A DNA stretch of 17,661 nt. Source: a virus (lineage: Duplodnaviria > Heunggongvirae > Uroviricota > Caudoviricetes). Made by a program: the position numbers and the translations under genes. The stretch is taken from the IMG/VR virus record IMGVR_UViG_2695420658_000002. One strand, given 5' to 3'. The notes under the pieces are model-generated. The model was not told where the DNA came from. It did not search any database and saw nothing but the letters and a program-made list of their open reading frames with translations. Shown one piece after another: positions 950 through 17,461 of the stretch. Every line of letters begins with the position of its first letter. Position 1 is the first letter of the stretch.

Positions 950-1621
950 TCAGCGACCAATCACCACAACCTGACCACCGTCCCCTTCGTCTGCCGTGCT
1001 GATCTCCTGAGATACCACACGTGACCCCACGCGCATTTCACCATACAGAACAGGCATAACATTGCCCTGGGCAACCATGTTATCCAGTGAGGAGAAATAG
1101 GTGTTCTGCTTACCGTTATCCGTTGTCTGTGTGCGGGGAGTTCTGGCTTTCGGTGCCAGCATCTGAGCCACACCGCCGAGCACCATACTGGCACCGAGAG
1201 AAAACAGAATGCCGGTCATACCACCGGCACCAATGGCAGCCCCCCATGCTGCAAGGGTGGCTCCGGCGGTAAAGAATGATCCGGCAATGGCGGCTGCTCC
1301 CAGGACAATCTGGAATACACCACCTGACTTGGCCCCGGCGACTCTGGGAACAATATGAATCACAGCGCCGTCAGGCAGAGCCTCATGTAACTGTGCCGTT
1401 AATCCGGACGTGCTAACATCCTGCCCGGCAATACGCACCTGATACCAGCCGTCGCTCAGCTTCTGACGAAACGCAGGGAGCTGTGTGGCCATCGCCCGGA
1501 TGGCTTCGGCACCCGTTTTCACACGAAGGTCGATGCGGCGGCCAAATCGTTGCAAATCCCCGTAAAGGCAGATGCGTGCCATGCCCGGTGACGCCAGAGG
1601 GAGTGTGTGCGTCGCTGCCAT
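950..1621 (-). CDS. I: Tail assembly protein I (ubiquitin-like N-terminal domain, Gly/Ala-rich hydrophobic middle)
   Basis: 223-aa ORF recognised as lambda gpI (MAATHTLPLASPGMARICLYGDLQRF...); 672 nt, same length as the lambda gene; ATG at 1621; overlaps K by 103 nt. Confidence 0.9.
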   Translation of the reverse strand: MAATHTLPLASPGMARICLYGDLQRFGRRIDLRVKTGAEAIRAMATQLPAFRQKLSDGWYQVRIAGQDVSTSGLTAQLHEALPDGAVIHIVPRVAGAKSGGVFQIVLGAAAIAGSFFTAGATLAAWGAAIGAGGMTGILFSLGASMVLGGVAQMLAPKARTPRTQTTDNGKQNTYFSSLDNMVAQGNVMPVLYGEMRVGSRVVSQEISTADEGDGGQVVVIGR

Positions 1622-2262
1622 TTGTCGGTATACCTCTCTCGTTTGCTCAGTTGTTCAGGAATATGGTGCAGCAGCCCGCCGTCACCGCAGTAAATGGCGG
1701 CATGATTCGGCACCGATGAACCAAAACAGCACAGCAGCACATCGCCCGGCTGCGCCGCTGACAACGGCACCTGATACAGCCCTGTGGCCTCCAGATTATC
1801 CAGATAGAGATTCTGACCGTGACGCCACCAGTCATCCTCACGATGAAAATCCGGCATCTCAATCCCCGCCAGATGGTAAGCATCCCGGAACAGCGTGTAA
1901 CAGTCCGTCACCCCGTGCTCAAAGCGCCGCCCGGTGAGATGCGGCACACAGCGGAACTTGTGAATCGCCCCCCGGCAGACCAGCCACCACGGCAAATCAC
2001 TCTGCACCTGCAGCCGCCGGTCGGCCTCACTCAGCCAGGGCAGACCACCGGGGTGGCTGTGGACCAGTGCCACAATCTCACCCTGCATCTCTGCCTGCAG
2101 CCAGTCTTCCGGCGACATACGGAAATACGCCTCCGGCTCACCGGAGATATTCACGCAGGGGAAATATCTTTCCCCCTCCGGCGTTCTTACCACGAAGCCG
2201 CACGACTCCGCTGGAGCACATCGCCGGGCGTGCGCCAGAATCGCTGATTCTGTCTCTGTCAT
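1519..2262 (-). CDS. K: Tail assembly protein K (JAB/MPN + NlpC/P60 domains); long form from the ATG 5 nt after the L stop; the reference-style start would be the internal ATG at 2118
   Basis: 247-aa ORF; HSHPGGLPWLSEAD JAMM motif, E-x2-G (PAESCGFVV) upstream, NlpC/P60-like Cys (TDCYTLF) and His (PNHAAIY). The C-terminal 199 aa correspond to lambda K as I recall its annotation. Confidence 0.8.
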   Translation of the reverse strand: MTETESAILAHARRCAPAESCGFVVRTPEGERYFPCVNISGEPEAYFRMSPEDWLQAEMQGEIVALVHSHPGGLPWLSEADRRLQVQSDLPWWLVCRGAIHKFRCVPHLTGRRFEHGVTDCYTLFRDAYHLAGIEMPDFHREDDWWRHGQNLYLDNLEATGLYQVPLSAAQPGDVLLCCFGSSVPNHAAIYCGDGGLLHHIPEQLSKRERYTDKWQRRTHSLWRHRAWHASAFTGICNDLAAASTFV

Positions 2263-2267
2263 GGGAT

Positions 2268-2966
2268 TTACTGCGAAAGTTTGTTAATGGAAAGGAAGCC
2301 GCCAAAGTTGCCGACGTTATTGCGAAACTTACAGCCACTCAGGCATTTGCTGCATTTATCCTTCGTGATGTCGGACGTTGGCTGGTCATATTCATCCGCG
2401 ACCGCCGGACCGTGATAACCGCACTCATCGCCGCGATAGGTCCAGGTGCAGGTGTTGGCCAGCATGATACGTCCCGGAAAAACAGCGCCATCTGTTTCCG
2501 TCGGCGTGGACAGTACAAAAGAGGCACTCACCGCGCTCAGTTCGCTGCACTGCTCAATGCGCCAGCGGCTGATCACCTCCTGCTCCGGATCGGCGTCACT
2601 GTTTCCGTTGACGAAGTTCACCGCATCCAGAAAACGGGCGTAAACCTTACGCCGGACCACCGTTCCGCCGACCAGACTCTGTAGATCTTCCGCCATCCCG
2701 GTGACCATACCGTACAGGTTAGAAACCATCAGCGTGGGGCGCGTACTGGTGCCTTTGCCATTCAGTTCAAAACCACTCCCCTGAATGGGATACGGCTGAT
2801 ACTGTCGCCCCTGCCAGGTGACCGGCTCACCTTTTTCGTTCTGCTCATTACAGAAAAAATAACGTTCTCCACCGACCTCTGTCAGATCGATTTCCCAGAG
2901 CACCACGCTGGCCGACTGCTCCGCACGGGTGCATTCATTCAGTGTTTCCTGCCGGATATCCTGCAT
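2268..2966 (-). CDS. L: Tail tip protein L (C-terminal Cys cluster)
   Basis: 232-aa ORF recognised as lambda gpL (MQDIRQETLNECTRAEQSASVVLWEIDL...); 699 nt as in lambda; start ATG overlaps the M stop by 1 nt (TGATG). Confidence 0.9.
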   Translation of the reverse strand: MQDIRQETLNECTRAEQSASVVLWEIDLTEVGGERYFFCNEQNEKGEPVTWQGRQYQPYPIQGSGFELNGKGTSTRPTLMVSNLYGMVTGMAEDLQSLVGGTVVRRKVYARFLDAVNFVNGNSDADPEQEVISRWRIEQCSELSAVSASFVLSTPTETDGAVFPGRIMLANTCTWTYRGDECGYHGPAVADEYDQPTSDITKDKCSKCLSGCKFRNNVGNFGGFLSINKLSQ

Positions 2967-3295: not shown

Positions 3296-5911
3296 CGTCC
3301 ACCTCCGGAGAACAGGCCACCATCACGCATCTGTGTCTGAATTTCATCACGGGCACCCTTGCGGGCCATGTCATACACGGCCTTCATCATCTGTGGACCT
3401 GGCAGACCATTCGTACCGTCGTTCTGAATCACCACGTGATTGTTCTGATTAAAATTAATGCCTTCAGCCCGCCGCATCTGCGCCGGACTTCCGGCACCGC
3501 CCACATAACCACCTTCCGCATAGCCGCGCATCAGCCGGTAGAGATTCCCCACGCCAATCCGGCTGGTTGCCTCCTTCGTGAAGACAAATTCACCACGGTG
3601 AACAATCCCCGCTGGCTCATATTTGCCGCCGGTTCCCGTAAATCCCCCGGTTGCAAAATGGAATTTCACCGCAGCGGCCTGAATGGCTGTACCACCTGAC
3701 GCGGATGCGCCGCCACCAACAGCCCCGCCAATGGCGCTGCCGATACTCCCGACAATCCCCACCATTGCCTGCTTAAGCAGAATTTCTGTCATCATGGACA
3801 GCACGGAGCGGGTGAAGCTGCGCCAGTTCTGTTCACTGCCGGTCAGCATCGCCGCCATATTCTGTGCAATACCATCAAAGGTCTGCGTGGCTGCACTTTT
3901 AACCTGTGACATACTGTCCGTGGCGCTCTCTTCCCACTCACTCCAGCCGGACTTCAGGCCTGCCATCCAGCTCCCGCGAAGCTGGTCTTCAGCCGCCCAG
4001 GTCTTTTTCTGCTCTGACATGACGTTATTCAGCGCCAGAGGATTATCGCCATACTGTTCCTTCAGGCGCTGTTCCGTGGCTTCCCGCGCTGCCTGCCGGT
4101 CAGTCAGCCCCCGGTTTTTCGCATCAATGGCTGCCCGTTTTGCCCGTTGCTGCTGTGCGAATTTATCCGCCTGCTGCGCCAGCGCATTCAGGTGCTCCNN
4201 NNNNNNNNNNNNNNNNNNNNNNNNNNNNNNNNNNNNNNNNNNNNNNNNNNNNNNNNNNNNNNNNNNNNNNNNNNNNNNNNNNNNNNNNNNNNNNNNNNNN
4301 NNNNNNNNNNNNNNNNNNNNNNNNNNNNNNNNNNNNNNNNNNNNNNNNNNNNNNNNNNNNNNNNNNNNNNNNNNNNNNNNNNNNNNNNNNNNNNNNNNNN
4401 NNNNNNNNNNNNNNNNNNNNNNNNNNNNNNNNNNNNNNNNNNNNNNNNNNNNNNNNNNNNNNNNNNNNNNNNNNNNNNNNNNNNNNNNNNNNNNNNNNNN
4501 NNNNNNNNNNNNNNNNNNNNNNNNNNNNNNNCTTCACGCCGGACTGTTTCGGCTTTTTCAGCGTCGCTTCATAATCCTTTTTCGCCGCCGCCATCAGCGT
4601 GTTGTAATCTGCCTGCAGGATTTTTCCGTCTTTCAGTGCCTTGTTCAGTTCTTCCTGACGGGCGGTATATTTCTCCAGCGGCGTCTGCAGCCGTTCGTAA
4701 GCCTTCTGCGCCTCTTCGGTATATTTCAGCCGTGACGCTTCGGTATCGCTCTGCTGCTGCGCATTTTTGTCCTGTTGACGCTGTTGATCTACCCTCTTTT
4801 GGGCTGCATCCCGCTCCAGGCGTTTTTTTTCACGATCATCCCAGTAACGCGCCCGTGCTTCATCGTTAACGAAATAATCATCCTTGCGCAGATTCCAGAT
4901 GTCGTCTGCTTTCTTAAACGCAGCCTCTGCCTTAATCAGCATCTCCTGCGCGGTATCAGGACGACCAATATCCAGCACCGCATCCCACATGGATTTGAAT
5001 GCACGTGCAGTCCTGTCTGCCCAGGTCTCCAGCGTGCCCATGTTCTCTTTCAGGCGGCGGGTCTGGTCATCAAACCCTTTCGTTGCGGCCTCGTTCGCCG
5101 CCTGCAATGCCCCGGCTTCATCGCCGGAACGCTGCAACTGAGCAACATACGCAATCTGCTCCGCCGTCACGTTATGGAACTGGCGTGCCATCGCCGTCAG
5201 CCCCGACGTCGGGTCTGTGGTCAGCTTCCCGAAGGCTTCAGCGACCTTGTCCACCTCCACGCCGGATGCATAGGAGAAACGCGCCACACTCTGGCTGATG
5301 GACGCAATCTGAGCCTCACCGCTTACCCCCGCCTTAACCAGTGCGCTGAGTGACTCGCTGGTCTGGTTAAACGTCAGCCCTGCCGCCTGCCCGGCTCTGG
5401 ACAGGACCAGCATACGATCTGCCGTCAGTCCCGCCTGATTACCGGAAAGGACCAGCGTTTTGTTGAAATCGGACAGGGTTGAGTTGCCCTGATACCAGGC
5501 ATACGCCAGCGCACCGGTCGCCACCGCCAGCGAGGTGGCCCCCACCATCGGCAGGGTGATCGCGCCGGCAAGCCCCCTGAACATGGGGATCATCCCGCCG
5601 AAGGAGTCCTTAACCTGACCACCCTGTTGCAGCAGGATCAGCCAGGGATTCTGCCCCCCTGCAAGCTGCGTGGCCACGTCGGTGAACTGTGCAGGCAGCA
5701 TACGCATGGCGGCTTTATACTGCCCGACGGAAATCCCCGCTTTCTGTGCAGCCAGCGCCTGTCGGCTCAGCGACTGTTCAACGACTGCCGCTGTTTTTTT
5801 CGCATCACTTTCCGTACCGGAAAAATGACGCCTGACTCTGGCCATCTGCTCGTCAAATCTGGCCGCATCCAGACTCAAATCAACGACCAGATCGCCTACC
5901 GGTTCAGCCAT
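3292..5911 (-). CDS. H: Tail tape measure protein H, interrupted by a 333-nt N run; reading frame differs across the run
   Basis: N-terminal 460 codons (5911-4532) begin MAEPVGDLVVDLSLDAARFDEQMARV...; the C-terminal segment (4197-3292) reads EHLNALAQQADKFAQQQRA...MSEQKKTWAAEDQL...GGLFSGGGR. Both are recognisable as lambda gpH. H start overlaps the T stop by 8 nt, as in lambda. Confidence 0.8.
4199..4531. other. Masked/unknown sequence (333 N) inside gene H
   Basis: Run of n characters in the sequence. Confidence 1.
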
Positions 5912-12035: not shown

Positions 12036-15716
<3,681 letters not shown>

Positions 15717-16408: not shown

Positions 16409-16977
16409 NNNNNNNNNNNNNNNNNNNNNNNNNNNNNNNNNNNNNNNNNNNNNNNNNNNNNNNNNNNNNNNNNNNNNNNNNNNNNNNNNNNNNNNNNNNN
16501 NNNNNNNNNNNNNNNNNNNNNNNNNNNNNNNNNNNNNNNNNNNNNNNNNNNNNNNNNNNNNNNNNNNNNNNNNNNNNNNNNNNNNNNNNNNNNNNNNNNN
16601 NNNNNNNNNNNNNNNNNNNNNNNNNNNNNNNNNNNNNNNNNNNNNNNNNNNNNNNNNNNNNNNNNNNNNNNNNNNNNNNNNNNNNNNNNNNNNNNNNNNN
16701 NNNNNNNNNNNNNNNNNNNNNNNNNNNNNNNNNNNNNNNNNNNNNNNNNNNNNNNNNNNNNNNNNNNNNNNNNNNNNNNNNNNNNNNNNNNNNNNNNNNN
16801 NNNNNNNNNNNNNNNNNNNNNNNNNNNNNNNNNNNNNNNNNNNNNNNNNNNNNNNNNNNNNNNNNNNNNNNNNNNNNNNNNNNNNNNNNNNNNNNNNNNN
16901 NNNNNNNNNNNNNNNNNNNNNNNNNNNNNNNNNNNNNNNNNNNNNNNNNNNNNNNNNNNNNNNNNNNNNNNNNNNNN
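16409..16977. other. Masked/unknown sequence (569 N); expected location of cosN and the cos-proximal region beyond it
   Basis: Run of n characters; by lambda spacing (Nu1 start about 190 nt from the cohesive end) cosN would lie near 16440-16465. Confidence 0.9.
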
Positions 16978-17020: not shown

Positions 17021-17461
17021 ATGGCTCAGGTTGCCATTTTTAAACAAATATTCGATAAAGTGCGAAATAATTTAAACTATCACTGGTTTTNNNNNNNNNN
17101 NNNNNNNNNNNNNNNNNNNNNNNNNNNNNNNNNNNNNNNNNNNNNNNNNNNNNNNATTTACTATTTAGCCACAGAGAATATTCATCTTGTTCTTGAAAAC
17201 GATAATACGGTTTTAATAAAAGGACAGGGTAAGGTTGTAAATGTAAGATTTTCAAAAAATAAATGCCTTATAGAAGCCACCTTAAAAGGATTCAAATCAG
17301 GAGAGTTATCATTTTACGAATACAGGAAAAATCTTGCTACAGCAGGGGTTTTCAGATGGATTACAAATATCCACGAAAACAAAAGGTATTACTATACCTT
17401 TGATAATTCATTACTCTTTACTGAGAACATACAGAACACTACACAAATATTTCCGCACTAA
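17021..17461 (+). CDS. Hypothetical protein, AT-rich moron-like cargo ORF beyond cos; possibly a DUF1398-type (YbcV/YdfO-like) prophage protein
   Basis: ATG at 17021 with GGAAGG 7 nt upstream (the track's ATG at 17006 has no Shine-Dalgarno); frame open to TAA at 17459-17461; markedly lower G+C than the structural genes; interrupted by a 65-nt N run. The family assignment is from memory of similar prophage proteins and is weak. Confidence 0.55.
17091..17155. other. Masked/unknown sequence (65 N) inside the AT-rich ORF
   Basis: Run of n characters. Confidence 1.

Follow-up and report, generated by a model that had tools for sequence, protein, structure and literature searches.

The DNA analyzed here is a stretch of 17,661 nucleotides (nt) from a tailed phage of the Caudoviricetes (IMG/VR record IMGVR_UViG_2695420658_000002), hereafter the window, which carries on its minus strand the morphogenesis region of a lambda-like prophage, from Nu1 and A on to L, K and I. 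Our subject is gene K, and in particular its start, because the protein that it encodes, gpK, is given as 199 amino acids (aa) in the lambda reference entries, whereas the window and every independently sequenced lambda code for 247 aa. The gene lies between L, whose product belongs to the Phage_tail_L family, and I, whose product matches PF06805 (Lambda_tail_I), and upstream of J, a placement characteristic of the gpK/TAPK family; the L-K-I-J order is the same in lambda and its relatives. A first-pass annotation of the window had proposed that K starts at an ATG 5 nt past the L stop and not at an internal ATG 48 codons further on, and the reading frame of 247 codons that it described is present and intact in the sequence (Table 1). 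A protein identical to this translation is recorded in NCBI as 'C40 family peptidase [Shigella sonnei]'.

Table 1. Gene K and associated features in the window (positions are those of the whole window; residues are numbered from M1 of K)
Feature	Coordinates	Strand	Remarks
Gene L, open reading frame (ORF)	2268..2966	-	from the ORF list of the window
L stop codon TAA and spacer before K	TAA 2270..2268; spacer 2267..2263; K ATG 2262..2260	-	spacer of 5 nt
Gene K, full-length coding sequence	1519..2262	-	intact 744-nt ORF with ATG start; 247 aa, 28.2 kDa
K codons 1-48, absent from the 199-aa annotation	2119..2262	-	coding, not an intergenic gap
JAMM/MPN+ (Prok-JAB) metalloprotease domain, about residues 1-108	1939..2262	-	N-terminal; predicted
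E19 codon (JAMM glutamate, P-x-E-x-C-G element)	2206..2208	-	in PAESCGFVV, residues 17-25
GGAGG	2134..2130	-	11 nt before the internal ATG
Internal in-frame ATG (M49)	2118..2116	-	would give 199 aa and a 149-nt gap after L
HxH-x7-S-xx-D zinc-binding motif HSHPGGLPWLSEAD	2020..2061	-	residues 68-81
NlpC/P60 (C40) cysteine peptidase domain, residues 111-224	1591..1932	-	C-terminal
NlpC/P60 catalytic candidates C121, H187 and H199	C121 1902..1900		
Overlap of the K 3' end with the gene I 5' end	1519..1621	-	103 nt; I is the ubiquitin-like partner of K
Gene I, open reading frame	950..1621	-	from the ORF list of the window

The first 48 residues are recognized as part of a known domain by sequence profiles. 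The Pfam profile Prok-JAB (PF14464; gathering score 25 bits) matches the 247-aa form with 52.6 bits over residues 4-98, which include E19, and covers profile positions 4-103 of 114; the 199-aa form in contrast scores 22.9 bits, below the gathering score, and retains only profile positions 63-103. No complete MPN domain was seen downstream of codon 49, and the earlier claim that the short form would lose both the JAMM glutamate and a part of the MPN fold is borne out by this drop in score. A corresponding difference was obtained with the NCBIfam desampylase model, which gives an E-value of 6.7e-07 for the long form versus 0.08 for the short one. In a phmmer comparison residues 7-105 of K align with the solved JAB protein 2KKS, with E19 falling on the glutamate of its PNEACG element. 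The PAESCGFVV element and the HxH-x7-S-x2-D motif lie where they had been placed, and the entire JAMM catalytic set, namely E19, H68, H70, S78 and D81, is present in K.

These profile matches are complemented by structure prediction. An AlphaFold2 model of K based on an alignment of 100 sequences, which replaced a discarded single-sequence run with a predicted local distance difference test (pLDDT) score of 34, has a pLDDT of 97 and a predicted template modelling (TM) score of 0.91. In this model residues 1-48 contribute a helix (residues 3-15) and two strands (21-27 and 30-36) to the first domain. Foldseek searches with the model recovered the PfJAMM1 structures 5ld9 and 5lda, with TM-scores of 0.66-0.69 on the target and a root mean square deviation of 2.5-2.7 over 107-109 columns, and also AMSH, CSN5 and Rpn11, at a probability of 1.00. 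A match of this length needs residues 1-48, as a domain beginning at M49 would offer only 60 residues. The model accordingly presents the N-terminal domain of K as a predicted MPN fold.

The C-terminal part of the protein is matched by PF00877 (gathering score 23 bits) with 47.5 bits over residues 111-224 and over the whole profile (positions 1-105 of 105), and a second set of Foldseek matches consists of NlpC/P60 structures including MepS/Spr. In the alignment of 100 sequences D120, C121, H187, H199 and H200 are each conserved in at least 90%, while on the JAMM side H68, H70 and D81 are invariant and S78 nearly so. Taken together, the profiles, the alignment and the model show K as combining, in a single polypeptide, a complete predicted JAMM/MPN+ metalloprotease and an NlpC/P60 cysteine peptidase, each with a conserved catalytic set. 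The PHROGs collection splits this protein into several families: phrog_7305, a profile of 76 positions labelled 'unknown function', phrog_2635, which corresponds to the N-terminal 135 residues, and phrog_2552, which corresponds to the C-terminal 142. These families were probably built from split or truncated K calls.

Conservation of the N-terminus extends well beyond the close relatives of lambda. A search of 1.84 billion cluster representatives returned 2,750 matches, among which we defined a distant set of 106 representatives with less than 65% identity and lengths of 215-290 aa (about six of them chimeric or fragmentary). The N-terminus lies at most 7 residues from M1 in 96 of these 106 and at position 49 in a single one. 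The N-terminus is thus kept in distant homologues, as it is in close ones. Within residues 1-48 the P-x-E-x-C-G element is strongly retained (P17 in 94, E19 in 101, C21 in 96 and G22 in 103 of the 106), at levels comparable to those of the downstream motif (H68 in 103, H70 in 102, S78 in 97, D81 in 103). At position 49 itself the distant homologues mostly have Ile (65 of 106), Met (14), Leu (13) or Val (6). This residue belongs to the hydrophobic core of the domain and is no conserved start.

An open stretch of 48 codons is expected by chance with a probability of (61/64)^48, or about 0.10, and the upstream extension of the frame is therefore weak evidence when taken alone. Domain homology and codon-level constraint set it apart from such a chance extension. 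Among 220 unique intact K sequences taken from the fetched loci, codons 2-48 show a ratio of nonsynonymous to synonymous polymorphism (pN/pS) of 0.25 in the K frame, versus 5.2 and 3.2 in the other two frames, and 26 of the 41 variable sites in these codons are at the third codon position. This pattern points to purifying selection on codons 2-48 in the K frame only. The 744-nt ORF is intact in 312 of 331 full-length matches. Existing annotations agree: a K of 744 nt and 247 aa is annotated in phage 434, 2B8 (RefSeq), PhiR46_1, a resequenced lambda and CJLB-4, 247 aa is the length of the large K protein clusters, and the exact 247-aa protein of lambda is found on at least 1,000 contigs. Thus, by five independent lines, those of profiles, structure, family, selection and annotation, residues 1-48 belong to the K protein.

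How, then, did lambda gpK come to be listed with 199 aa? The first-pass annotation had given this length for the lambda protein, and this part of its account stands: the entries are NC_001416 (14276..14875), J02459 ('K (tail component;199)') and UniProt TIPK_LAMBD (P03729). What it missed is that in NC_001416/J02459 the upstream ATG (14133) is out of frame with the annotated K, so that two in-frame starts were never available there to choose from. J02459 is without one G after position 14266, which is equivalent to window position 2128. The site reads GGAGGC-TATTTCC in J02459 and GGAGGCGTATTTCC in all other sequences compared; over the aligned region the reference has GGAGGC-TATTTCCGTATG and the window and all relatives have GGAGGCGTATTTCCGTATG, the version of the reference being GGAGGCTATTTCC when written as one string. 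The upstream ORF of the reference accordingly runs through 45 native codons, is then frameshifted and meets a stop after 76 codons. Insertion of a G after 14266 yields a 247-aa ORF identical to the K of resequenced lambda. Since the upstream ATG is out of frame without this G, no usable start other than the internal ATG (M49) was left, and the 199-aa annotation of lambda was forced by the sequence error.

The omission is no trait of lambda itself. In the phage collection it was found in only four records, J02459, NC_001416, OR474059 and OR974322. The G is present in the resequenced lambdas and lambda derivatives LC730321, PV340536, KT232076, DE3 and lambda imm434, where it restores the 247-aa ORF, and an 81-nt query aligned over 82 nt in the imm21 hybrids, implying that they have the additional base too. 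A search pattern that accepted either version gave at least 264 matches in metagenome, viral and genome collections, with G in 263 and T in 1, and the base was lacking in none of the matches listed. Likewise, 5,426 complete E. coli genomes yielded 3,958 matching records, and the reference version was found in none of them. An exact match to the 76-aa product of the frameshifted upstream ORF of J02459 was absent from a collection of 15 billion proteins, which is weak evidence as gene callers may skip this ORF.

Some sequences are otherwise almost the same as the reference. Sixteen contaminant contigs of up to 8 kb in assemblies of unrelated bacteria (among them Neobacillus, Pseudomonas, Shewanella, Chromatium and Bradyrhizobium) differ from J02459 by the additional G only, one ambiguous N apart. 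One contaminant contig spans 12411-20409 and has 17183A and 18835T, which are the alleles of J02459 and unlike those of the Lambda_AGU lineage. The most decisive record is MW057783, a de novo assembled genome that was compared over J02459 positions 13081-48441: its only differences from J02459 are the additional G and four substitutions, namely 37589 C>T, 37742 C>T, 43082 G>A and 45352 G>A. We take these four substitutions to be the published markers of commercial lambda cI857 ind1 Sam7, the type of strain that was sequenced in 1982. We also asked whether the deletion could be genuine variation within the PaPa or cI857 Sam7 lineage, and rejected this: the J02459-identical contigs of 8-12 kb have the G, and so does a de novo assembly with ind1, cI857 and Sam7.

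From these observations we conclude that the 199-aa gpK given in J02459, RefSeq and UniProt is artefactual and results from a single base left out of the reference. The lambda reference and the UniProt gpK entries thus appear to be truncated through a sequence error. A literature search found no specific published statement of this error in J02459, which may have been noted elsewhere. With the G included, the lambda genome that is in use as a sequencing standard would grow from 48,502 to 48,503 bp.

Several further observations concern the records that were used here. MW057783, deposited as 'Campylobacter phage CJLB-4', is lambda cI857 ind1 Sam7 DNA. Low-coverage lambda contigs in assemblies of unrelated bacteria make up 19 of the 23 genome-contig matches, which points to laboratory contamination. 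The records OR974317-OR974325 are lambda fragments of 3.3-3.5 kb with Sam7 that are labelled 'cloacal swabs'; they look like sequencing control DNA. Lambda_AGU (LC730321) differs from J02459 at 15 sites; among these, one base is deleted at 139 and a C is added at 20836, in the stf region. Lambda PaPa reportedly has a frameshift in stf, and Lambda_AGU presumably represents a lineage proficient in side fibres, similar to Ur-lambda.

With the profiles and the conservation on its side, M1 (ATG 2262) is in our view very probably the main start of K, as the first-pass annotation had argued. A number of observations speak against it. The 22 nt before ATG 2262 give +0.7 kcal/mol, that is, no Shine-Dalgarno pairing, as had been noted earlier, and the GGAGG upstream of the internal ATG, also correctly described before, pairs with the 3' end of the 16S rRNA at -9.5 kcal/mol. 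Moreover, the internal start is called despite an intact 247-aa ORF in 4 of 10 contigs examined, and the reference version of the site is carried by OR474059, an engineered strain marked UNVERIFIED, and by OR974322, which is co-linear with the reference; both of these look reference-derived. The pairing at the internal ATG and the start picked there by automatic gene callers would fit a gene with two products, 247 aa from M1 and 199 aa by internal initiation at M49, of which the short one would combine an intact NlpC/P60 domain with a crippled JAB remnant. Other lambda genes do have nested starts (C/Nu3, S107/S105), and among close relatives 219 of 220 retain the internal ATG, while only 4 of the unique sequences counted lack the GGAGG. 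However, both elements double as codons for conserved residues (P43-E44 and M49), so that their conservation needs no start function. Position 49 is moreover Ile, Leu or Val in 84 of the 106 distant homologues and Met in just 14, which speaks against a family-wide internal start, the spacer of 11 nt is longer than the usual optimum, and the short protein is known only from the annotation artefact. We accordingly consider two products unlikely, and slightly more doubtful still a nested two-start K specific to the lambda clade, in which a 199-aa isoform devoid of a working JAMM site would have a role of its own, for instance in regulating the cleavage of I or as an enzyme with the NlpC/P60 domain alone. 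If nested starts did exist, the 199-aa gpK known historically would be more than an artefact of annotation: it would then be a genuine second product.

Translation from the internal ATG alone, which would leave the 149 nt after L either non-coding or coding for a separate small peptide, is what J02459, NC_001416 and TIPK_LAMBD annotate, and the good Shine-Dalgarno sequence would be in its favor. A 2020 review likewise works with a gpK of 199 aa, gives '52-182 out of 199' and captures only the NlpC/P60 half (PMC7291167). Against this, the annotation rests on a one-base omission that is unseen in any independent sequence, codons 2-48 are under frame-specific purifying selection, the long N-terminus is shared by 96 of the 106 distant homologues, and the short form, besides falling below the Pfam threshold, has lost E19 together with the initial helix and two strands of the MPN fold; we regard this start as highly improbable. 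Scarcely any credence can be given to an intermediate in-frame GTG, either V37 (211 aa) or V24, even though KT232076 annotates a K of 636 nt from V37 in a RAST-style call, the representative of cluster P0045 begins with VNISGEPE, and there is some purine-rich sequence upstream (-8.4 kcal/mol, about 20 nt away). This Shine-Dalgarno-like element is too distant from V37, either GTG would remove E19 and the first helix, the homologues reach M1, and the purifying selection spans codons 2-48 as a whole.

The clusters of 199-aa proteins in databases (1,684-4,936 members) persist through the choice of the internal ATG by gene callers and are annotated as NlpC/P60 only. We had considered them as possible evidence for the short form, and rejected them as such: all 10 contigs examined have the G, and the 247-aa ORF is intact in the 4 mentioned above. 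Database proteins in which L and K are fused were similarly rejected as products of read-through, as the frame of K differs from that of L and the entries are singletons from fragmentary or noisy assemblies.

Returning to M1 as the start of K, translation from ATG 2262 would give a 28-kDa protein with two proteases. Given that a Shine-Dalgarno sequence is absent and that the ATG lies 5 nt after the L stop, initiation is probably coupled to termination on L, with K being translated by ribosomes that have just terminated there. The N-terminal domain (about residues 1-108) would act as a zinc metalloprotease by means of E19, H68, H70, S78 and D81, and the C-terminal domain (about residues 111-224) as an NlpC/P60 cysteine peptidase by means of C121, H187 and H199. 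The JAMM domain is predicted to be deubiquitinase-like and to cut the ubiquitin-like N-terminal domain off I in the course of tail-tip assembly. Processing of the ubiquitin-like domain of I by the JAB domain of K was predicted by Iyer et al. in 2006 (PMC1779556), and a 2026 meeting report on a talk by A. Davidson describes cleavage of the gpI ubiquitin-like domain by lambda gpK once gpI is in the tail-tip complex (PMC12908700). Lambda gpK is required for tail assembly (PMC12617516) and was not found in lambda virions by mass spectrometry (PMC10721106).

At the level of sequence K has the features of the JAMM/MPN+ and NlpC/P60 families and of gpK. Compared to lambda gpK (TIPK_LAMBD; NP_040598), the window K is the same gene with the same order of neighbors and the same two-domain content; it is identical to the K of resequenced or corrected lambda at 719 of 744 nt, with 8 amino-acid differences, and the lambda reference entries differ from both in beginning at M49. 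It is also a typical representative of the TAPK family that Iyer, Burroughs and Aravind described in 2006, in which a JAB domain is followed by NlpC/P60 and the next gene is an I with a ubiquitin-like N-terminus, and no material difference from that family was seen; the minority of versions with NlpC/P60 only were described by these authors as possibly degenerate variants (PMC1779556). With prokaryotic JAMM/MPN+ proteases (PF14464) such as Pyrococcus furiosus JAMM1 (5LD9/5LDA), the haloarchaeal desampylase (NF041370) and DSY2949 (2KKS), K has in common the fold, predicted in its case, and the E...HxH-x7-S-xx-D motif, at about 21-26% identity. Such proteases act on ubiquitin-like proteins by cutting behind the C-terminal glycine, and the same reaction is proposed for K acting on I. 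Unlike them, K is fused to an NlpC/P60 domain and functions in virion assembly, whereas the others belong to sulfur-carrier or SAMP pathways. The C-terminal domain of K matches E. coli MepS/Spr (C40) in its fold and in the Cys-His-His catalytic residues, but K is without a signal peptide or a cell-wall-binding module.

In itself the window carries little weight in this matter. The 247-aa call with the long start is already the usual annotation, made by the NCBI pipeline and most annotators, and the architecture was described in 2006, so that the finding in the window is ordinary and already known; what is added here is a documented explanation for the discrepancy in the length of lambda K. As a result of the omission the first 48 residues of gpK, and with them the catalytic glutamate, are missing from J02459/NC_001416 and UniProt P03729, and papers that use these reference entries see only the NlpC/P60 half of the protein. 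Constructs, mutants and structure predictions of gpK that are based on the reference would hence represent a truncated and probably inactive enzyme. Experiments on how gpK cleaves gpI in a deubiquitinase-like manner are currently in progress. Overall, the biology is ordinary and the correction to a much-used reference entry is useful.

The start of the neighboring gene I is called variably as well. Many recent records and gene callers start this gene at GTG 1522, overlapping the K stop, which results in a protein of 190 aa. In the 223-aa form of I, residues 14-97 are matched by the Lambda_tail_I profile, which represents the ubiquitin-like domain; profile positions 1-25 are missing from the 190-aa form. 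ATG 1621 is preceded by the Shine-Dalgarno sequence GAGAGAGG (-9.3 kcal/mol), and the true start of I is probably M1 (1621) or M14 (1582). In the overlap of K and I (1519-1621) the pN/pS is 0.10 in the I frame versus 1.98 in the K frame. As selection here acts on the I frame and not on that of K, the last 34 residues of K seem to evolve as a by-product of the ubiquitin-like N-terminus of I. The AlphaFold2 model places a helix (residues 230-243) over much of this tail, and its confidence drops only at the last few residues. Elsewhere in the window there are three runs of N (masked sequence), at 4199-4531, 16409-16977 and 17091-17155, the first of which lies inside the tape-measure gene H.

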